Assembly: GCA_048882325.1 (NCBI GenBank)
Contig: JBHLRS010000004.1
Coordinates: 49,628-113,627, forward strand
Direction: 5' to 3'
DNA length: 64,000 bases
DNA from: Candidatus Thorarchaeota archaeon
GTDB lineage: Archaea; Asgardarchaeota; Thorarchaeia; Thorarchaeales; Thorarchaeaceae
How positions within the stretch are numbered: the first letter of the stretch is position 1; every line of letters starts with the position of its first letter. The notes under the pieces were generated by a model. That model did not search any database and had not been told where the DNA came from. It worked only from the letters and a program-made list of their open reading frames with translations. This document shows positions 2 to 62,196 of the stretch, piece after piece. The position numbers and the translations under genes are program-made.

Positions 2-1087
2 ATCAAAGCATCACTCAGGCAGAAAGGACAAATCGTTGCTTCTGCAGAGTCTGAAAGACTCAGAATTGAGCAGGTCACAGCTAGGGTCAACATTGATTCA
101 CTCCGGGTTCCCAAACGTGCGCATATAGGAGGTAAGGTTTCAGGCTGGCTTAGAATTAGAAGGAACACAGAGAGTGGAGAACCTGCAATACTCAACATGA
201 CGTTCGTTTTTCCAGATGGTGATGAGCACCATGTGTTAAGCCAACCCGTCAAACAGAGTAAGAATTTATCAATCGCCTTTGGTCCGATAGTCATCCCTGC
301 GCCTCGTGTGACTGCAAACCACAAAGGTGTAACACTGGTGGCTACACTGAGCTATGCTGGAGTTGAGGTTGATAGGAGGTCAAGTGACATAGACCTCATG
401 GGTGGGCCTCAGATGGATATGGCTCAGATTGAGTTTGTTGGTCTTCCCAATTTCACAGCGCCTGATGATCTAATTCAGCCAACAGTCCAAGTAATCAGTA
501 ATGTTGAGAAGAAGAAGTCGTGCATTATAACAGTTGAATTGGAATCAGTTGGTGGAAACAGCGAGCTCCTCACACAGGAGATAGAACTTGAGCCGGGGAA
601 GGAACGTTTGTTCCCTGTGCCGGTGAGAATCCCATTGAGTGCAGAGATGAGCACAGCACATCTTAGAGCTACACTCAGATGTGGTGACAGATCCTATGAG
701 AAGAAACAGAGGTTCAAGATCAAAGCAATAGAAGAACCATTATTTAAGATCAATTTCTCAATCAGGAATGAGTCAGGAGATGAGATACCAGGACTAGTAG
801 CAAGGTTGTCCACTGTGGATATCATTACAACGATTGAAAGCGTTCGAGAGAAGATTGGAGACCTAACACTTAGTGTCCGTATCATGTCAAGACGTGATGT
901 TGTCAAAGAGTTTGAAGTGCCACTGCCAGATCCTGATGCAAAGAAAAATGTAGTCAGAATCAATTGGATTACACCACCAATTGATGTTGTCACCGGATAC
1001 TATGTAGATGCAGTAATTCTACAATCGGGACGTCCGTTGCCTTCGAGGGCAGTGGAACTCGTTAAACGACAGTTCACAGTGTATTGA
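2..1087 (+). CDS. hypothetical beta-rich protein, 5'-truncated by the window edge
   Basis: The frame of ORF 197..1087 stays open back to position 2 with no stop, so the gene begins upstream of the window. I recognise no motif. Confidence 0.45.
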   Translation: MKASLRQKGQIVASAESERLRIEQVTARVNIDSLRVPKRAHIGGKVSGWLRIRRNTESGEPAILNMTFVFPDGDEHHVLSQPVKQSKNLSIAFGPIVIPAPRVTANHKGVTLVATLSYAGVEVDRRSSDIDLMGGPQMDMAQIEFVGLPNFTAPDDLIQPTVQVISNVEKKKSCIITVELESVGGNSELLTQEIELEPGKERLFPVPVRIPLSAEMSTAHLRATLRCGDRSYEKKQRFKIKAIEEPLFKINFSIRNESGDEIPGLVARLSTVDIITTIESVREKIGDLTLSVRIMSRRDVVKEFEVPLPDPDAKKNVVRINWITPPIDVVTGYYVDAVILQSGRPLPSRAVELVKRQFTVY

Positions 1088-1397
1088 GAAAGGAAGAGTT
1101 CTATACTTATAAAATACTCATAATCCTGTGTTTGATTGGGGGAGGCTTATGAGGTTTCATTATGAGGCATGCAGGGATTACGGCCTTTGCCGATTTATTC
1201 TTCGTGTAATTATGATTCGACATTTGCCGACATTCAAATGAAAATTGTTATATTGGCTAAGAAATGCTTGGAAATAAGTATTCCCAAGGCAAAGCTATAA
1301 ATGCGAACTTTGAGCCGCGAATTGGTAATCGGACCCAACAATTAGGATATGATATATACTCATAGAACATTCGACAATGACTTCGACGATATGACCT

Positions 1398-2366
1398 ATG
1401 TTTGAACTCAGTACCAACTTGGATGTGAAGCGAATGCTAGATATATTGACCCATCCGGCTGTATCCGGACTACTGGTTATGACACTAGTTGGAGCTTTAG
1501 CATACAAGCTAAACTTTGTCGATATTTCAGGATTGATCAGTGCATTTGTAGTTGGTTTTACAATCTGGTACACTGGAGGAGTCGTGTCATTTGTCATTAT
1601 TCTGTTTTTCTTTTTGAGTGCGGGTTTGGCGACAAAGATGAAGTACAAAGAGAAAGCCAAGAAAAACCTAGCTCAAGAAGGGAAAGGTAAACGCTCTTGG
1701 GTCAATGTCTTAGGTAGCGGTATCATTCCAATGATGTTTTCGATAGCCATGTACATGACCGGACCTAGAGTGAATTCAGAGCTTGCTGCCGCTGGATGGT
1801 CGTTCCTAATGTTTGGAGGATATATCGGAGCTGTAGCAACTACGACCGCAGACACTTTAGCGAGTGAGATTGGTGTGTTTAGTAAGAGTAAACCACGCCT
1901 CATCACTAACCTGAGAAGGAAGGTCCCACGAGGTACTATCGGCGCAGTTTCTCTTCTTGGAGAGGGTGTTGCCCTATTTGCTGGTTTTTTCATTGGAGTT
2001 CTCGCACTCATCTTCGCACTTTTTACACCAGAACTTGTTGAGGCGGTAAGTACAACAGAACAGTTGATTGTCCTCGTTCCGATGTCCATCTTGACAGCAT
2101 TGATTGGGTGCAATCTCGACAGTCTCTTTGGGGCGGTTTTGCAGAATAGATTTGTTTGTGAGATCTGTGGAGCTGTGACTGACAAGGAGTTTCACTGTAA
2201 TTATGAAACCAAGTATGTGGGAGGATTCAAGAGTTTCACAAACATGCACGTGAATCTCGGCTCTTCCGGAATGGGGGCTACACTTGGCATAGTATTGGGG
2301 GCAGGATTGTTTGTCTGGATTCTCGGAGGCCTCTTCTTCTGGATAGCAGCTTCATCAAGCAGCTAG
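1398..2366 (+). CDS. DUF92/TMEM19-family polytopic membrane protein with a Cys/His-rich C-terminal tail
   Basis: Multiple hydrophobic helices. The conserved K..K..G..EKxxGxR...NVLGSG stretch is typical of DUF92 (TIGR00297). The tail reads CEICGAVTDKEFHC. Confidence 0.4.
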   Translation: MFELSTNLDVKRMLDILTHPAVSGLLVMTLVGALAYKLNFVDISGLISAFVVGFTIWYTGGVVSFVIILFFFLSAGLATKMKYKEKAKKNLAQEGKGKRSWVNVLGSGIIPMMFSIAMYMTGPRVNSELAAAGWSFLMFGGYIGAVATTTADTLASEIGVFSKSKPRLITNLRRKVPRGTIGAVSLLGEGVALFAGFFIGVLALIFALFTPELVEAVSTTEQLIVLVPMSILTALIGCNLDSLFGAVLQNRFVCEICGAVTDKEFHCNYETKYVGGFKSFTNMHVNLGSSGMGATLGIVLGAGLFVWILGGLFFWIAASSSS

Positions 2367-3701
2367 CTGTTTCTTCTCATACTTAACTGCATGCTGAATA
2401 GCATTGCAAAGGTCAGACCTCTCACCAATTTTCTGTAAGAGACCGGACACGAACCATTCAGTTATCTCAGCCGTACCTGAGTCACTTTCTACAAACTGAG
2501 TTTCACCATTCTCAACAACCCGATATTTGTTAACGGTTTCTTTGATCATAATTCTGGCCTCAGTGATATTTTGTATCTTCTGTAGAGGTCGAGGTTTAAC
2601 CTCCTTCTTGAGATAGCGCCATGCACGGTTTGATATGAGTAGAGTTTCAACCTGAGATAACACAGGCTTCAGTCGATTAAGCCCCATCTCCCAGTACGGT
2701 ATTGAACATCTATAGAGAACAGGTATATTGTGAGTTTTCGCATTTGCAGCTATTGAAGCGGCGACTTCTAGGAATAGTTCCCCAATATACACTGCTCTTG
2801 CAGTTTCCACGAGTTTCCAAGGGACTTGAGAGGGAGAGGTTATGGAGAGTGATGTTTCGGGACCTATTCCAACAAGTATTCGAGCACCTTTTGGTTCATC
2901 GATGATGATTGATTGGTTTGTCTGTTTATCGTTTTCAACAAACACGTGGTGGACATCAACTCCGCCCTGTATTAGATTGGCAAGGATATTCCACCCATCA
3001 ATGTCATTCCCAACTGAAGATATGAAGGAGGTTTTGAATCCTTCACGAGATAGAGCAAGAGCGAGTTCAACTGAGGGCCCACCAGAACGTCTTGAAGGAG
3101 TACTGCAACCAGACAGACCTCCTACTGGAGGTATCTTCTCACAATCAATCTGAGTATAGAATGCTGATGCACCAAATATGAGGTAATCAGGCGTTTTATA
3201 TTTCTTTGACCCCTCAAGAATCGCCTTCGCTCTCGTCCTTGCAAAAATCTCAAACAGAGTTGATTCAGGGAGTCCCGCATCACGGAACAAAGTTGCTAAT
3301 CGAACAAGATAATCTTCGAGTAGAAATGCTGTGAGTTCTTCGACATCTGATGGAAGACCTTCAAAATAGAATCTAGCTAATCCCCACCCATTCTTTGTGA
3401 GTTCATGGAGGACAACTCGTTTTCCCTGGTATATTGTTGTTCCAGTTGTGATGAGTCCAAAGTTTTTGAGAGTCTTAAGATAAGCAAGGATGCTCTTGTT
3501 TGAATGAGGTAGCCTTTCAACCAGGTCTCGTTGAAGGACCCGTCCGGTTTCATCAAAACTGGAAAGTACAGTTCTAGCCAAACGAGATGCCAAAACAGAT
3601 CTGATGAATTCATCTCGACTCTCAGGATTGGCAGGTAGAAAGAGAAGATAAGGCCAAAGCGACCCGATTTTGCCTGTGGTTGTCATTCCCAACATCTTCA
3701 T
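2355..3701 (-). CDS. winged-helix regulator fused to a PfkB/ribokinase-like sugar-kinase fold
   Basis: The N-terminal ~170 aa look like a wHTH (SILAYLKTLKNFGLI). The middle has a ribokinase-like GG...(V/L)A..L...G....VG.D..G N-motif. The C-terminal DTTGAGD-type motif is degenerate, so it may be a ligand sensor rather than a kinase. Confidence 0.4.
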   Translation of the reverse strand: MKMLGMTTTGKIGSLWPYLLFLPANPESRDEFIRSVLASRLARTVLSSFDETGRVLQRDLVERLPHSNKSILAYLKTLKNFGLITTGTTIYQGKRVVLHELTKNGWGLARFYFEGLPSDVEELTAFLLEDYLVRLATLFRDAGLPESTLFEIFARTRAKAILEGSKKYKTPDYLIFGASAFYTQIDCEKIPPVGGLSGCSTPSRRSGGPSVELALALSREGFKTSFISSVGNDIDGWNILANLIQGGVDVHHVFVENDKQTNQSIIIDEPKGARILVGIGPETSLSITSPSQVPWKLVETARAVYIGELFLEVAASIAANAKTHNIPVLYRCSIPYWEMGLNRLKPVLSQVETLLISNRAWRYLKKEVKPRPLQKIQNITEARIMIKETVNKYRVVENGETQFVESDSGTAEITEWFVSGLLQKIGERSDLCNAIQHAVKYEKKQLAA

Positions 3702-3766
3702 ATAGTGGTTTATTACGCCAATTTAGTGTACAAAGCTACCTATGTAGTTTACTAAATTACACTACA

Positions 3767-4564
3767 ATGGTGAAAATGATGTCTGGATTCACTAAGTCAT
3801 TTGCTTATCCATGGGCTCTTACTGGGATTTTCGGAGCTGTGCACCTCGTAATAACACTGATTCCGTTCAATCTTAGTATTGGTGGAGGTGGCGAGATATC
3901 TTTCGGTCTTGTTTCTGCACCAATTATCGGATTTCTCCTAGGTCCATTTTTTGGAGTGATTGCAGTAATAATCGGTTCGTCAATTGCTATGTTTATCAAC
4001 AACCTCCTTGCAGTAATCGGACCTTTTACTGTTCTGGCTACAGCTGCTGGAGCATTTGCAGCTGGTGTGATGAGAACAAGATTTCGAATCAGTGTACCAG
4101 TTTTATTCATACTTGCAATGATCATATACGAACTTAGCCCAGTTGGCAATGCTGTGCCTGCATTCATCTGGTTCCACATGATTGCTTTCATTCTATCTTT
4201 ATTGTTTATTATCCCGGGGGTGTCTTCTAAAATAATGAGCCCCCTAAATCTCAATGTGGACGTACATAGATGGAGAATGTTTGCTAGCATCTGGATGTTC
4301 AGTCTCGTTGCCGTGACATTGGATCAAGCAGTAGGTTCAGCTTTTGGAGGATGGTACCTCCCACCACTTTTTGGACTCCCTGCAATTGTAGGATATTTCG
4401 AGGTTGGCATTCTACTTTACGCTTTTGAGCGAATCGTTGGATCACTGATTGTTGCAATTGTGATATATGGATTAGTTGAAGGGCTCTCAAGAGCAGATTT
4501 CGGTTTACCTTTATCTCGCATATGGAAATTTGAGTTACTTGAATTATCGGAGGAAGAGATATAG
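3767..4564 (+). CDS. integral membrane protein, possibly an ECF-type S component-like
   Basis: Six or more hydrophobic segments and a Gly-rich helix. The tracked ORF starts at 3680 and would overlap the divergent gene, so I chose the ATG at 3767 (MVKMMSGF). Confidence 0.35.
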   Translation: MVKMMSGFTKSFAYPWALTGIFGAVHLVITLIPFNLSIGGGGEISFGLVSAPIIGFLLGPFFGVIAVIIGSSIAMFINNLLAVIGPFTVLATAAGAFAAGVMRTRFRISVPVLFILAMIIYELSPVGNAVPAFIWFHMIAFILSLLFIIPGVSSKIMSPLNLNVDVHRWRMFASIWMFSLVAVTLDQAVGSAFGGWYLPPLFGLPAIVGYFEVGILLYAFERIVGSLIVAIVIYGLVEGLSRADFGLPLSRIWKFELLELSEEEI

Positions 4565-4691
4565 CTCGCACGAAATGAGGAGGAGTGAAGACCTCAATTA
4601 GTCGGAGGAAACAACGGGCGTTCCTCCGACACCACATTTTCGTTCAATCCTAAATTGAGCAGAGACGAAGCTTCATAAGACTTCAAGCGAA

Positions 4692-5606
4692 ATGTTTCGT
4701 GAAGTTGTGTTTCCGGACACATTTCTACCATTCGTCTACACAATCGTGTGTGTGGAAGGAAGGAGCAAACGAGAATTGCAGTTTGGATTAGGATATTTGT
4801 GGACGATGTTCTTCGTCGTAATAGCGTTCTTCGCCTTGATGTTTGTAGCTAGTGGAATCAAAGTTCTGAAGGAATGGGAGCGTGTGGCAATCCTTCGTCT
4901 AGGAAAGTTCAAGCACATTAGAGGACCTGGAGTAATCTGGGTCACACCCCTTCTTGATAAAGTAGCTATGAAAGTATCGCTCAGACTTTTGACATATGCG
5001 TTCAAGACAGAACGATCATTGACCAAGGACAACGTACCAGTTGTCGTAGATGCGGTAATGTATTTTCGAATCATCGATGTTGAGAAGGCAATCCTCAGTG
5101 TTGAGAGGTATACCGTTGCCGTGGAGCTTGCTGCTCAAACAACCCTGAGAGAAACTACTGGTAAGGTAACTCTTGACCAACTCCTCTCTGAGAGAGATGC
5201 GATTGCAGGGCATCTTCAGGAACTCATCGACGAGAAGACTGAGCATTGGGGTGTTAAGGTAACTAGTGTCGAAATTCGCGATGTCGTGATTCCATCAGCA
5301 CTTCAGGATGCAATGAGTCGTGAGGCTCAAGCTGAAAGAGAACGCAGAGCTAGAATCACATTAGCTACTGCTGAGCTCGAAGCTTCAGAGAACATGCTGA
5401 AAGCGGCTCGGATTTATGAGGAGTCGAATGTAGGTTTCATGCTTCGTCAGTGGAACATCATGCAAGAGATCTCAAAGAATGCCAACTTGATCATCATGAT
5501 TCCAACAAACCTTCCAGAAGTCGGAATTGCCGCTGGAACCTCAGTGGCTTTGTCAGCTGGAACTGGAGGAATGAGAGTACCGAAAGACAAAGGATCAGGT
5601 GAATAA
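4692..5606 (+). CDS. stomatin/SPFH (band-7) family protein
   Basis: N-terminal TM, then the canonical SPFH core (RLGKF..GPG..W..P..D........L.T.D...V.VDAV.YFRI.D...A...V......A...LAQTTLR) and a C-terminal coiled coil. Confidence 0.85.
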   Translation: MFREVVFPDTFLPFVYTIVCVEGRSKRELQFGLGYLWTMFFVVIAFFALMFVASGIKVLKEWERVAILRLGKFKHIRGPGVIWVTPLLDKVAMKVSLRLLTYAFKTERSLTKDNVPVVVDAVMYFRIIDVEKAILSVERYTVAVELAAQTTLRETTGKVTLDQLLSERDAIAGHLQELIDEKTEHWGVKVTSVEIRDVVIPSALQDAMSREAQAERERRARITLATAELEASENMLKAARIYEESNVGFMLRQWNIMQEISKNANLIIMIPTNLPEVGIAAGTSVALSAGTGGMRVPKDKGSGE

Positions 5607-58131: not shown

Positions 58132-58659
58132 TTAGTCCTCCTTTGCTATCCAGTCATCCACTGCCTCATGCATTACAGCTTCCACTGATGTCGCCCAGAT
58201 GTTGCCTTTCTTCTCTTTCACCTTGTCAAGAAATGCATCATACTTGTCGCCGTCCATTAGGACAACCACTCTGCCCTTTCTATCATTGATGAAAGCCTGG
58301 TGAATCATCTTCTTTGTGTTCCAGTACTCATGTTGGATGTCACCTTCCTTAAGTCGGGGATAGAAAGGCCATTCACCTGTTGGATGTGGTCTATAGGATT
58401 TTCCACCGCTTTTCCACCTGGCAACCTTGTCACCAGTGGCTTCCTTAAAGCCAGGTCTGAAAGGCCATTGTGGAACATAGCGGAATCCTTTCTCTCCATC
58501 TACTACTCCACCGGACCAACGACCAGTGTAGACACGTCCACCTTTGTTGTCGCAGAACTGTTCCATTACAACTTCGATGAAACCTTCAGGAGTTAGACCC
58601 GCCTCTTCAGCCAATTTCTTCATGTTTTCTAGAGTTTCTCCTTCAAAATTGACGTCCAT
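58132..58659 (-). CDS. Trp/Lys-rich hypothetical protein embedded in the beta-oxidation operon
   Basis: A 175-aa protein with no recognisable motif. It is tightly packed, with 1-3 nt gaps, between the nitroreductase-like and SCP2 genes. Confidence 0.4.
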   Translation of the reverse strand: MDVNFEGETLENMKKLAEEAGLTPEGFIEVVMEQFCDNKGGRVYTGRWSGGVVDGEKGFRYVPQWPFRPGFKEATGDKVARWKSGGKSYRPHPTGEWPFYPRLKEGDIQHEYWNTKKMIHQAFINDRKGRVVVLMDGDKYDAFLDKVKEKKGNIWATSVEAVMHEAVDDWIAKED

Positions 58660-58660
58660 A

Positions 58661-59440
58661 TTATTTGTCCTCCTTCCTGAATGCTATCCTCTTGTAGGGC
58701 TTACCCCAGCGTTCCTCATACATGAGTCCTTCAAGTGGAGCTCTGCTTGGGCCTAAGGCTCTCGGGGATACACGTTTGCCAATACAAAATGCGGTTAGTG
58801 GTTCCCAAATCGGCGGGATTCCTAGCCTATCTCTGATTAGTTCTGCATGACGTGGATCTGAACAGACAAGAGCCTCATATGCACATCCATAGCCAAGTTC
58901 AGTGGCGGTCAACCACATATTTTGAACTGCCATTCCACAGACAACTGATCCGAATAATGAGTTGGGATATAGATATCCAGCATCATGCCATGAATCACTT
59001 GCACAAACGATGATTACTGTGTCACTCTTTTCGGGATATCTGAATAGCTCACCATCTCTAAGTCTGGCGTATACAGCAGCCCTATAGGGATCACTGATGA
59101 ACCAGTTTCTTCCACTAGTGAGCTCAAATGGAGCTCCTCCAAAAGCCGTCTGAGCCATTTCCTGTGCAATATCAGCAAGAAATTCTTTGGTTTCTTGGTC
59201 GTCGCGTATGACAACAAAACGCATCATCAACATGTTCTCGGGACTTGGAGCATGTCGAGCTGCTTCCAATATCAGCTCGACGTCCTCATCGGGTATTTTC
59301 TCGCCAGTAAACTCTCGGATAGAGCGTCGCTCCCGAATCCATCTGAGAGATTCAAGATCTTTTGCGACTTTTACTTCTTCCTCGGCTTTACCAGCTGCTT
59401 TACTCTCTGCATCTGCAGCCATTTGTGTTATACACCTCAA
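58661..59440 (-). CDS. nitroreductase-like family protein, paralog 2
   Basis: RRSIREFTGEKIPDEDVELILEAARHAPSPEN, ~70% identical to 48689..49456. Confidence 0.55.
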   Translation of the reverse strand: MRCITQMAADAESKAAGKAEEEVKVAKDLESLRWIRERRSIREFTGEKIPDEDVELILEAARHAPSPENMLMMRFVVIRDDQETKEFLADIAQEMAQTAFGGAPFELTSGRNWFISDPYRAAVYARLRDGELFRYPEKSDTVIIVCASDSWHDAGYLYPNSLFGSVVCGMAVQNMWLTATELGYGCAYEALVCSDPRHAELIRDRLGIPPIWEPLTAFCIGKRVSPRALGPSRAPLEGLMYEERWGKPYKRIAFRKEDK

Positions 59441-59825
59441 CGTATTGTTGAACGGACCGGGTAATTATGAGCTACCATAAATGTATTCCTAGAAGTCGGG
59501 ATTCAACGAAGAAAATCCATATCTTGTCGATTTCTTGATTCTTCATAGAATAGACCCTGACGATACCCTGAGTAGTTCCTTATCATACTCTGAGTAGTGA
59601 CCCAGTATTGGCTACAATATACAAGCTGACATATGGAGAAATCTCGGATTGTTTTCTGAGCGTACATTGCTCCTCCCGGCGTATGTGCGTTCATCTCTTT
59701 ATGAACCGGGAGCTGTAATGCTCCCTCCAATCACGATAGAGATGATTTCGGTATTGAATATCAACCTAGTATTACACACAGTGATATTCACGTATGACGC
59801 TGAACATACTCAGGTGATTATCGAG

Positions 59826-59966
59826 ATGAAGCTCGTAACATTACATATACCGGAGACTTATGTCGATGGGCTAGAGAAGCTTGTAGAGAGCAATCTCTAT
59901 CCCAACAGATCCGAAGCCATCCGAATTGCTATTCGTGACTTGCTCAAGAGAGAGCTGTGGGGTTGA
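59826..59966 (+). CDS. ribbon-helix-helix (CopG/NikR-like) DNA-binding protein
   Basis: MKLVTLHIPETYVDGLEKLVESNLYPNRSEAIRIAIRDLL has the beta-strand then SRSEAIR helix signature of RHH proteins. I chose the ATG at 59826 rather than the tracked 59649. Confidence 0.5.
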   Translation: MKLVTLHIPETYVDGLEKLVESNLYPNRSEAIRIAIRDLLKRELWG

Positions 59967-59972
59967 TCTCAA

Positions 59973-60003
59973 AATGGAGCCCCACAAGCTCCATTCTTTT
60001 TCC
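59973..60003 (+). terminator. hairpin plus T-run immediately after the RHH gene
   Basis: aatggagc (59973-59980), loop cccacaa, gctccatt (59988-59995), followed by ctttttcc. Confidence 0.45.
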
Positions 60004-60099
60004 TAACATCCTAGATTCATTCAAATGCGAACTCAGAGACGGGGTTCTGCGAACGCGCCACCACATGAGGCGCATTAGCTGTAGAAGAAACTTTGATAT

Positions 60100-60132
60100 T
60101 ATCTCTTATTGGTGAATATATGATAAGAGATA
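60100..60132. promoter_or_regulatory. perfect 10-bp inverted repeat (tatctcttat / ataagagata) with a 13-nt AT-rich spacer, upstream of the Cys-motif paralog pair
   Basis: 60100-60109 is the exact reverse complement of 60123-60132. The spacer tggtgaatatatg carries a TATA-like run. It lies ~50-80 nt upstream of the ATG at 60181 and ~130 nt downstream of the RHH gene. Confidence 0.4.
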
Positions 60133-60180
60133 TCTCAAATTTCAAGTAGTGTTATCAAAATTCGTCTAGAGGCGTAGCGA

Positions 60181-61140
60181 GTGAACATAGACCCACAACT
60201 ACCTTCAGATGCGTCAGATCATCCAACCAATCTAGTGAAGGGTTGTCCCTGCTATCGTGAATTTGGTGACGAAAAAGTCTGTCTTAACAATGACACTGTT
60301 TTTCCAATCAATGCCATCTCGGTCGACCCAGGATTTTTCCATCAACTGGACTCGAGAGATTCGTTACTAGAATTTCGAAGTGACAACATCAGCATGTGTT
60401 ATCTTTTGATGTTCTTGGACAGGGCAGAGGGCTTTTGTTATTGCGTTAGTCAAAACCAACGAATCCGAATCAACGATAATGATATCAAAACCACTGAGAT
60501 TGATGATGCACTGAAATTCGTTACGACCTCGGAGAAAAGCAGAGACGGTGTTCTTTGTTCTGATTGTCTCTATAGATACCTTAGAACCCTTGGTGAGAGC
60601 TCTGGGGGCTTTCTTACAGATGACGAACGCGAGGAAATTATTGCGACATATGTTCGGGAGCTTGCAACAAACATAGCAGTGCAACTGAGCATGTATGATG
60701 GTAATAACAAGCAAATCAATTTCAACGAACATCTCTGGAGTTATCTAAGAGAAATCAATAGAAGCAGGTCACATTGGGCAGCAATGATTCTTAATCTGAA
60801 GAAATCAGGCGCAGAAAACGAGTTGATTGAACTGATTGATGCTTATAGAACTCTTGCACGATTGGAATCAGTCTTCTTATTCCAAGTACTATCTTTAGAA
60901 GATCCTTCCGAAGAAACGGACCCGCTTGGAGTTCTTCAATTCATGGTTGGAGTTTCTGAGAAAGTCATCAGTGTGAACAATTCAATCCGAGAAATGACAA
61001 ACAACCTCATTGAACGAAACGCGTTGCCTAGCAATATACATGAGATGCTTATGCAACATTCTGAAACAAGAAAGACAACGGAGTACAAGTTTAGCAATCT
61101 CGTGTCTGCCCTCCACAACATCGACACACATACCACATAA
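60181..61140 (+). CDS. Cys-motif hypothetical protein, tandem paralog A
   Basis: KGCPCYREFGDEKVCLNND ... CSDCLYRYLRTLG. It shares this architecture with the next gene, and the first ~150 aa align. Confidence 0.5.
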   Translation: MNIDPQLPSDASDHPTNLVKGCPCYREFGDEKVCLNNDTVFPINAISVDPGFFHQLDSRDSLLEFRSDNISMCYLLMFLDRAEGFCYCVSQNQRIRINDNDIKTTEIDDALKFVTTSEKSRDGVLCSDCLYRYLRTLGESSGGFLTDDEREEIIATYVRELATNIAVQLSMYDGNNKQINFNEHLWSYLREINRSRSHWAAMILNLKKSGAENELIELIDAYRTLARLESVFLFQVLSLEDPSEETDPLGVLQFMVGVSEKVISVNNSIREMTNNLIERNALPSNIHEMLMQHSETRKTTEYKFSNLVSALHNIDTHTT

Positions 61141-61191
61141 TAACTGCTAAATGCCCTCCAATTGTAGTTAGGAGCGGTCCCGAAGAGCGAC

Positions 61192-62196
61192 TTGAGCGCG
61201 CAGTTGCTTGAGTTGGAGAAGAAGAACGTGTTAGACACAAGCGAGCAAAAGCAAAGGTCCAGCATCAAACTAGTTAGGGGGTGTCCCTGCTACAAGGTGT
61301 TTGGGGACGAGAAGCTATGTGTCAACAATGACAGTGTACTCGAGATTGAATCTATTGAGATAGATCCCTCAATCTTCTCATTTCACTATGACAAAGACAG
61401 CATGAGGGAAGAGCGAGCTACTGAAGGTAATGTGTGCTACGCATCAATTTACATCAACTATCCAGACAACAAGGTCTACTGTATCTCACAAGGATGGGTT
61501 CTGAGAATCCATGGCAAGGATGTTCCGGGAAATGACTTGGAAGATGCAATGCAGTTTCTATCAACAAAGGAGATTACTAGTAGTGCTGAGATATGTTCGG
61601 AGTGTCTTTACAAGTTCATCCTTACATTGGGCGATACCTTTACGGATAACTTGACGGAGAAAGAAAAAACAGCTGAAGTGAAGAAATACGTGGACAAATT
61701 CTCACTCATGATTGCTTTGAAACATAGCCAGACTGATAAAATGATGAAACCCATTGGTACAGAAGACGACATCGAGAACGGTGTAGACCATTTTCAGTTC
61801 CTCAGAACTTATCTGGTTCAACTTCTAGACCAACAGAACTATTGGACAGTACTAGGCAAAGAGCTTGAGAAGAATAATGCGGAAGACTGGGTGAAGAATC
61901 TTGTATCGATGAGAGAAAGGCTTGCTAGATTGGAGTTCCAATTCTATAGCCAGACCCTGCAGCTCAGGGATATCAACGAGTTTAACATGCTTCTCAAGAT
62001 GCTGCAATATGTTCTAAAGACATCTGATGAGATTATCGAACTGAATGAGAAGATACACGCTGAGATTCGGTCAGAAAGATTCTGTCAACGAGCTGAAAGG
62101 GATGACAAACTGGATGTCCTCGCAGGGTACGCTGACAAGAGTAGAACCATAGAACACAATTTTGGAAATATCCTGCAAATCCTCACAAAACTATAG
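61192..62196 (+). CDS. Cys-motif hypothetical protein, tandem paralog B
   Basis: RGCPCYKVFGDEKLCVNND ... CSECLYKFILTLG, paralogous to 60181..61140. Confidence 0.5.
   Translation: MSAQLLELEKKNVLDTSEQKQRSSIKLVRGCPCYKVFGDEKLCVNNDSVLEIESIEIDPSIFSFHYDKDSMREERATEGNVCYASIYINYPDNKVYCISQGWVLRIHGKDVPGNDLEDAMQFLSTKEITSSAEICSECLYKFILTLGDTFTDNLTEKEKTAEVKKYVDKFSLMIALKHSQTDKMMKPIGTEDDIENGVDHFQFLRTYLVQLLDQQNYWTVLGKELEKNNAEDWVKNLVSMRERLARLEFQFYSQTLQLRDINEFNMLLKMLQYVLKTSDEIIELNEKIHAEIRSERFCQRAERDDKLDVLAGYADKSRTIEHNFGNILQILTKL

Follow-up and report, generated by a model that had tools for sequence, protein, structure and literature searches.

The closest described relatives of the locus studied here are small ribbon-helix-helix (RHH) regulators of archaea. 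CdrS is an RHH cell-division regulator of Halobacterium and Haloferax encoded in the cdrS-ftsZ2 locus, and the position of cdrS directly upstream of ftsZ2, described in haloarchaea, has been reported to be widespread in archaea (PMC7439475, PMC8406309). In the Sulfolobales the RHH protein aCcr1 serves as a cell-cycle regulator (PMC9976878, PMC9976892). For the proteins downstream of our RHH gene a different group is of interest, the Arf-family GTPases of Asgard archaea, which carry additional domains according to passages of two publications (10.1101/2024.02.28.582541; PMC11914678). Here we describe a locus within 64,000 nucleotides (nt) of a Candidatus Thorarchaeota archaeon (assembly GCA_048882325.1, contig JBHLRS010000004.1, positions 49,628 to 113,627 of the forward strand); this whole stretch is called the window. 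The order on the plus strand is RHH gene, hairpin, inverted repeat, paralogue A and paralogue B. The comparisons below identify the RHH protein as a second member of the CdrS family and RHH-A-B as a core locus of Thorarchaeota. Our tentative reading is that A and B, two probably metal-binding proteins with a putative promoter of their own, form a heteromer and that their expression is part of a CdrS-type programme.

The RHH protein matches Pfam RHH_1 (PF01402) with E=1.3e-8 over residues 4-42 of its 46 amino acids (aa). An earlier note on this DNA had called the open reading frame (ORF) an RHH gene of 47 aa; the assignment is borne out by the Pfam match, but the protein is one residue shorter. 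The label CopG/NikR-type, which was also proposed there, turned out to be too loose. The top NCBIfam match is NF058555, transcriptional regulator CdrS (E=7.1e-14, 51.5 bits), followed by the much weaker NikR (E=3e-5) and aCcr1 (NF053762, E=2e-4), and close homologues are encoded directly upstream of ftsZ. The score lies below the 100-bit cut-off of NF058555, an equivalog model with a cut-off tuned to haloarchaea; RHH proteins encoded next to ftsZ in Asgard archaea score alike on the same model (49.3 and 45.6 bits). NikR itself was rejected as a candidate: the protein ends at residue 46, and the NikR models match the RHH part only (E ~3e-5).

Homologues with 67-80% identity were found in several Asgard lineages. 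Those of Jordarchaeales (locus L079, 80% identical to the window RHH) and Hermodarchaeota (L080, 71%) are located immediately 5' of a Tubulin+FtsZ_C gene. The Thorarchaeota locus L082 encodes an RHH paralogue of 60 aa with 67% identity to the window RHH; its gene shares 4 nt with the beginning of ftsZ, and this ftsZ matches TIGR00065 at E=2e-125. In the same locus (1030-5445) the ftsZ-linked RHH gene and ftsZ directly follow the genes of ribosomal proteins L3-L4-L23-L2. The homologue on a Lokiarchaeota contig (L081) adjoins an amidohydrolase gene, not ftsZ. We assigned the window RHH to the CdrS family because CdrS is its top model and its homologues lie upstream of ftsZ. The window RHH gene has no ftsZ next to it or elsewhere in the window. 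Since its downstream neighbours are A and B, and linkage to ftsZ is a feature of its homologues, this comparison identifies it as a second CdrS-family paralogue and not as the ftsZ-linked orthologue. Thorarchaeota keep a canonical cdrS-ftsZ pair elsewhere, as seen in L082. The window RHH is the more conservative of the two copies, because it is 80% identical to the ftsZ-linked protein of Jordarchaeales versus 67% to that of Thorarchaeota.

To compare the locus between species we used 70 loci from a scan in which each GTDB species was represented by a single genome; all of these loci derive from Thorarchaeota or from generically named Asgard metagenome-assembled genomes (MAGs). The RHH gene, A and B followed by a convergent gene for a CxxCxxCC protein were detected by tblastn in nearly all of these loci. 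The flanks are variable and RHH-A-B stays contiguous on a single strand: in some species a gene pair for an ADP-forming acyl-CoA synthetase (ACS) and a DRTGG protein is inserted upstream, and in others an additional gene separates B from the CxxCxxCC gene. The same order in about 70 species representatives makes RHH-A-B a core locus of Thorarchaeota, and the description as an accessory module in the earlier note had to be abandoned. The window RHH is 85-100% identical within these loci, in species in which A retains just 25-79% identity, and its DNA-reading N-terminal strand (MKLVTLHIPE) is nearly invariant across the class. Two tandem RHH copies precede A and B in L042-L047, L049, L051-L053 and L076 (one listing gives these clades as L042-L053 and L076); they are 78-89% identical to one another, for example those at 3416-3553 and 3574-3711 of L043. 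B is missing in L023 and L024 and stands alone in L063, L061 and L064 contain two B-like genes, and the divergent single-copy family members of L078 and L085 resemble B; for L078, which lies outside the core clade, the likeness to B exceeds that to A.

The conserved gene order also bears on a rather unlikely alternative, according to which the genes are neighbours only, with a global CdrS-like regulator located beside housekeeping metalloproteins (for example in redox or Fe-S handling) that have their own promoter. General conservation of synteny would be compatible with this explanation, as would the redox- or metal-type genes nearby (nitroreductase, the CxxCxxCC protein with PF03692, DUF362/Fer4) and the single-copy relatives without an adjacent RHH gene. 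On the other hand, RHH, A and B remain contiguous on one strand despite the insertions in the flanks.

In NCBI, A is identical (100%) to the hypothetical protein ACFFE2_03275 from a MAG assigned to Candidatus Thorarchaeota, and B is likewise identical to ACFFE2_03280. The two proteins of 319 and 334 aa can be aligned over their full length with 31% identity (E=3e-54), in agreement with the two paralogous ORFs of the earlier note. Identity is 38.7% between the N-domains and 25.0% between the C-domains; the helical C-terminal halves, noted before as divergent, have indeed diverged but are still homologous. The start of A at 60181 is supported by a GAGGC or GAAGC sequence conserved before the GTG or TTG starts of relatives. 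The start of B is uncertain between TTG at 61192 and GTG at 61228; the latter would result in 322 aa, the length at which many homologues are annotated. Across Thorarchaeota species the identity to the window copies ranges from 51 to 92% for B versus 25 to 82% for A, and by this measure B is the slower-evolving paralogue.

The core residues of the two motifs recognised initially, GCPCY..FGDEK.C.NND and CS[DE]CLY, are invariant in 74 family members. In A the invariant cysteines are C22, C34, C73, C88, C126 and C129, in addition to one Pro, one Asn and one Tyr. Every complete member contains the family signature C[PCS]..CxN..C..C..CxxC[LIM]Y with the spacing C[PCS]-x8-16-CxN-x25-60-C-x8-20-C-x25-50-CxxC[LIM]Y within an alpha/beta domain ~120 aa long; the spaced six-Cys signature is present in both A and B and likewise in the stand-alone and Arf-fused forms described below. 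An AlphaFold2 (AF2) model of A with a predicted local distance difference test (pLDDT) score of 75.4 consists of a beta-rich Cys domain (residues 17-136) and five long helices (147-318, pLDDT ~90), with the final Cys pair at the start of a helix. Both the invariant cysteines and the AlphaFold models fit the earlier description of a Cys-rich, probably metal-binding N-domain joined to a helical C-domain. The six-Cys domain probably binds Zn or an Fe-S cluster.

Neither sequence-family nor fold searches assigned A and B to a characterised family, in line with the earlier note, in which the family was not recognised. Pfam, NCBIfam and PADLOC scans of A and B revealed no family, and the same applies to all 74 alignment members in the case of Pfam. 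A search of PDB sequences with the 74-member profile yielded nothing below E=0.19, and a fold search for A and B gave no match to a known fold. The top structural neighbours are weak and at noise level, namely the metal-binding helical bundles of ScdA, with its hemerythrin-like domain, and of PhoU-like proteins. These bundles would suit the above view of RHH and A/B as neighbours only, but the helical domain contains neither a conserved His nor the ExxH-type motifs expected at di-iron or PhoU-like sites. An exhaustive hidden Markov model (HMM) search of 1.84 billion (1.84e9) representative proteins resulted in 63 matches at E<=0.001, and all nameable ones among them belong to Asgard MAGs. Among nameable matches the six-Cys domain, as judged from this search, is restricted to Asgard archaea.

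Database labels would allow two other explanations, which together we regard as barely credible: that the locus is a toxin-antitoxin or defence cassette with the RHH protein as ParD/CopG antitoxin, or that A and B are divergent TFB/TFIIB proteins. Some RHH homologues are indeed named 'ParD antitoxin' in database entries, and one homologue of B (P0215) is labelled TFIIB/Brf1 by JGI. The first explanation was rejected in view of the size of the downstream genes (319 and 334 aa), the lack of a toxin or PADLOC match and the synteny of the locus in about 70 species. The second was rejected as well, as A and B do not display the N-terminal zinc ribbon and the two cyclin-fold repeats of TFB/TFIIB.

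The exhaustive search also revealed stand-alone six-Cys proteins of 130-150 aa in Thorarchaeota and other Asgard MAGs, which align with the N-domain of A/B with an hhalign probability of 99.9%. On Thorarchaeota-like metagenome contigs the stand-alone gene (136-153 aa) adjoins genes for an Mre11-like phosphoesterase (NF041031, E=3.7e-26) and a Rad50-like ATPase of 430 aa, which comprises the head domains without the long coiled coil and the zinc hook (Rad50 models, E=3e-47). These three genes, which make up a compact cluster, are located on the same strand in L087 (2518-5387), L089, L091 and L094 and occur in another order in L088. Furthermore, Heimdallarchaeota and another Asgard MAG encode fusion proteins in which an Arf-family GTPase carries the six-Cys domain at its C-terminus. 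Here the GTPase part matches PF00025 (E=1.2e-43), and the Cys part matches the N-domain of A/B with 95.4% probability (E=1.7e-8). The Heimdallarchaeota fusion MHA1221498.1 is intact and comprises 337 aa. In an Asgard MAG (L084, 4705-5726) the Arf plus six-Cys gene was called as two overlapping ORFs, which indicates a frameshift or an assembly error. From its distribution the six-Cys domain looks like a portable interaction module that is attached to P-loop NTPases or encoded beside them.

The neighbourhood of the stand-alone gene, with two gene orders, points to a further possibility: A and B could be DNA- or chromosome-associated factors whose six-Cys zinc module binds DNA or a DNA-processing ATPase, with a role in repair or segregation and not in cytokinesis. 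The adjacent RHH protein, which binds DNA, would be consistent with such a role, which is compatible with parts of our own reading. We nevertheless consider it improbable, as this context belongs to a paralogue and not to A or B, no known DNA-binding fold was detected in the proteins, and the fusion to an Arf GTPase points to membranes instead. A bolder combination of the same observations, to which we likewise attach a small likelihood, is that the six-Cys domain could be a previously undescribed, Asgard-specific metal-binding adaptor for P-loop NTPases such as Arf GTPases and Rad50-like ATPases. In Thorarchaeota the two-paralogue form A/B, encoded downstream of its own dedicated CdrS paralogue, would in that case contribute a lineage-specific part to the machinery of cell division or of membrane and chromosome remodelling.

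The non-coding DNA around the RHH gene was analysed for signals that could control it or the genes downstream. The block upstream of the gene (Table 1) has the consensus GAGTAWTACTCACAAYCATATTSANGTATGAC followed by AGGTGAT and is conserved in essentially all Thorarchaeota loci. RNAalifold analysis of this leader block indicated no consensus RNA fold, and an Rfam search of 59400-60250 gave no match; for these reasons the block is probably protein-binding DNA. It probably comprises promoter and operator of the RHH gene. The sequence GGTAATAC, the reverse complement of the GTATTAC word in this block, was found twice about 45-160 nt upstream of ftsZ-linked cdrS genes, in Hermodarchaeota (L080) and Thorarchaeota (L082). 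GTAWTAC could thus be a candidate CdrS box, which we regard as a lead and not as a result. Neither AGTAWTACT nor GTAWTAC is enriched in the window, so that no regulon was readable, and the text of PMC8406309 does not give the sequence of the Haloferax CdrS motif. The start-to-start distance of 23 nt between GTATTAC and GTATGAC equals the centre-to-centre distance of the arms of the palindrome discussed below.

Directly downstream of the RHH gene the hairpin AATGGAGCCCCACAAGCTCCATT (59973-59995) is followed by CTTTTTCC. This is the terminator-like structure of the earlier note, and its stem is kept in relatives by paired changes, GGAGC/GCTCC in some and CGAGT/ACTCG in others. The hairpin is missing in several clades (L001, L004), and hairpins of the terminator kind are not enriched regionally (2 found versus 1.8 expected). 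The conserved element behind it, block 2, keeps an almost constant distance of 58-68 nt to the TATA-like box further downstream, and the sequence in between is free to vary; at the position of 60055-60073 many relatives are able to form some hairpin. The exact 13-mer AGATTSATTSAAA in the core of block 2 occurs once per locus, on the plus strand and only in the spacer between the RHH gene and A, in 35 Thorarchaeota loci of 8-11 kb each; in the window it is unique at 0 mismatches. Candidate functions of block 2 are those of an upstream regulatory site or of a second promoter for A.

The putative promoter of A itself at 60083-60099 was predicted from the general archaeal promoter consensus. Most Thorarchaeota species have a sequence of the form AAGAAA-NN-TT[GCA]ATAT at the corresponding position. 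A promoter of its own for A, together with a terminator-like hairpin 3' of the RHH gene, is what would be expected if the genes were neighbours only. Two species argue against this simple separation. In L003 (4844-5001) and L009 (3872-4001) about 80 nt of the spacer are lost, including the TATA-like box and the palindrome, and block 2 (AGATTCATTCAAA) is retained about 70 nt 5' of the A start codon. Because of this deletion A would have to be transcribed there from the promoter of the RHH gene or from block 2.

The perfect 10-bp inverted repeat at 60100-60132 exists as described in the earlier note: its arms TATCTCTTAT (60100-60109) and ATAAGAGATA (60123-60132) are perfectly complementary, are separated by 13 nt and span the predicted transcription start of A. 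This arrangement raised the possibility of a local repressor, with the RHH protein binding to the repeat over the transcription start of A and controlling a duplicated module. A perfect repeat directly after a TATA-like box is in a typical position for an archaeal repressor site, and when the 62 nt behind the promoter-like box were shuffled 200 times, 0 of the shuffled sequences reached the palindrome. Over the whole window, however, 2 perfect inverted repeats with arms of 10 bp or more (spacer 3-20 nt) were found versus 1.5 expected by chance, and the palindrome is therefore notable solely by its position. The other one is located at 4601-4630 (GTCGGAGGAA-N10-TTCCTCCGAC).

Comparison between species largely bore out the refutation that the earlier note had set for itself, a palindrome not co-conserved with the RHH gene. 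The palindrome is kept only in the imperfect form CTC[T/A]TAT-N13-ATAAGAG in about 13 close species. In L023-L026 a different perfect repeat of 10-11 bp, CTTGATATCT-N12-AGATATCAAG, is found at the same place (in L025 the 11-bp arms are separated by N10); this repeat takes in the TATA-like box itself. Most other Thorarchaeota species have no inverted repeat at this position, and in L003 and L009 it is deleted. The co-conservation expected of an operator and its regulator was thus not observed: the RHH protein is almost invariant throughout the class, including the strand that reads the DNA, and the repeat is limited to a small clade and differs in sequence between clades. This makes it unlikely that the RHH protein has its conserved operator in the palindrome. 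Judged by what is generally known of Arc and CopG operators, arms that are 23 bp apart from centre to centre are also wide for a dimer of dimers of a 46-aa RHH protein. We therefore regard a local repressor of this kind as very doubtful. The palindrome may be a lineage-specific operator, of the RHH protein or of another factor, or a by-product of AT-rich promoter sequence.

In our preferred reading, the heteromer of A and B, transcription of both genes would probably start mainly at the BRE/TATA-like promoter of A (BRE, B recognition element). A second route would likely be read-through from the RHH gene, given that the promoter of A is lost in two species. The two ancient paralogues stay together in tandem, and from this we infer that they act as a heteromer. 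Their expression would be tied to a cell-cycle and division programme of the CdrS type. If the RHH protein acts locally, it would do so at the GTAWTAC block (59769-59798) or at block 2 (60013-60025); the palindrome, being lineage-specific, is a less likely site. Both the regulation of A and B by the RHH protein and the link to division are inferred from conserved sequence and gene order.

Several observations weigh against this reading. Gene order is generally well conserved among Thorarchaeota (nitroreductase, CxxCxxCC gene, aminotransferase, DUF362, ThiF), and the adjacency of the RHH gene to A and B is therefore weak evidence of a functional link. No RHH gene adjoins the divergent single-copy members in L078 and L085. 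The genomic contexts do not point to one process: cell division, DNA repair and membrane GTPases are each suggested by a different one. The spacer between the RHH gene and A does not contain GTAWTAC, the sole motif shared with the upstream regions of ftsZ-linked cdrS genes, and a cluster look-up did not demonstrate both RHH paralogues in one genome. Metal binding is deduced from the conservation of the cysteines alone. Finally, the N-domain was confident in just one of five AF2 models, which limits the reliability of the model behind the apparent novelty of its fold.

The mode of division of Asgard archaea, which possess FtsZ, ESCRT and many small GTPases, is an open question; CdrS is one of the few known regulators of cell division in archaea. 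An extremely conserved second CdrS paralogue that is fixed before two uncharacterised proteins through a whole Asgard class, and a domain of these proteins that recurs on Arf GTPases and beside Mre11/Rad50-like genes, provide concrete candidates and a lead for Asgard cell biology. Asgard protein catalogues also gain a newly defined domain family. Should the link to division prove wrong, a clean description of a class-specific protein family and of its regulatory DNA elements would still remain.

Table 1. Features of the RHH-A-B locus and its non-coding elements (positions within the window).
Feature	Position	Strand	Remarks
Conserved non-coding block upstream of RHH	59754..59818	+	~65 nt, conserved at sequence level
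TATA-like TTGAATATC	59754-59762	+	inside block upstream of RHH
GTATTAC	59769-59775	+	near-palindromic word inside block upstream of RHH
GATATTCAC	listed between GTATTAC and GTATGAC	+	inside block upstream of RHH
GTATGAC	59792-59798	+	23 nt after GTATTAC
Shine-Dalgarno AGGTGAT	59812-59818	+	before RHH gene
RHH gene	59826..59966	+	46 aa + stop; PF01402, NF058555
Hairpin (8 pairs) + T-run CTTTTTCC	59973..60003	+	terminator-like; terminator scan
Block 2 AACATCCTAGATTCATTCAAATGCGAAC	60005..60032	+	core AGATTSATTSAAA at 60013-60025; conserved; candidate regulatory site
Variable hairpin GCGCC-N9-GGCGC	60055..60073	+	sequence not conserved
BRE/TATA-like box AGAAGAAAC-TTTGATAT	60083..60099	+	putative promoter of A
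Perfect 10-bp inverted repeat TATCTCTTAT-N13-ATAAGAGATA	60100..60132	.	directly after TATA-like box
Shine-Dalgarno-like TAGAGGC	60167..60173	+	8 nt before GTG start of A
Paralogue A	60181..61140	+	319 aa, GTG start
Six-Cys N-domain of A	60229-60588	+	~residues 17-136; AF2 model, invariant Cys
Five-helix C-domain of A	60619-61134	+	~residues 147-318; AF2 model
Paralogue B	61192..62196	+	334 aa, TTG start; same two-domain architecture as A

Outside the locus, an ORF of 175 aa on the minus strand (58132-58659) lies between the nitroreductase and SCP2-like genes. It has no match in Pfam or NCBIfam and is present at the same position in the Thorarchaeota contigs L003, L006, L007 and L008.

Among the described systems, aCcr1 resembles the window RHH as a small RHH protein with a link to the cell cycle, but the match to its model is far weaker than that to CdrS, and lineage and genomic context are different. 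With NikR, CopG and ParD the window RHH has the RHH_1 fold and the RSE.IR.A.R motif in common. In contrast to these proteins it has no C-terminal nickel-binding (ACT-like) tetramerisation domain and no toxin partner, and it is not borne by a plasmid or mobile element. Concerning the Asgard Arf GTPases, a description of the six-Cys domain was not found in the searched passages of 10.1101/2024.02.28.582541 and PMC11914678. The domain in A and B has a homologue at the C-terminus of Arf-family proteins such as MHA1221498.1 from Heimdallarchaeota, whereas A and B themselves contain no GTPase domain. The closest likeness is to CdrS. Both are small single-domain RHH proteins, CdrS is the top family model, Asgard homologues are encoded directly upstream of ftsZ, and the sequence is extremely conserved, with conserved non-coding blocks around the gene. 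The window RHH differs from CdrS in its length of 46 versus about 61 aa, as the C-terminal tail is missing, in its score of 51.5 bits versus the haloarchaeal equivalog cut-off of 100 bits, and in its position before two unknown Cys-proteins with their own putative promoter instead of ftsZ2. CdrS recognises a DNA motif with symmetry and controls genes of cell division; for the window RHH the corresponding candidate sites are located at 59769-59798 and 60013-60025.

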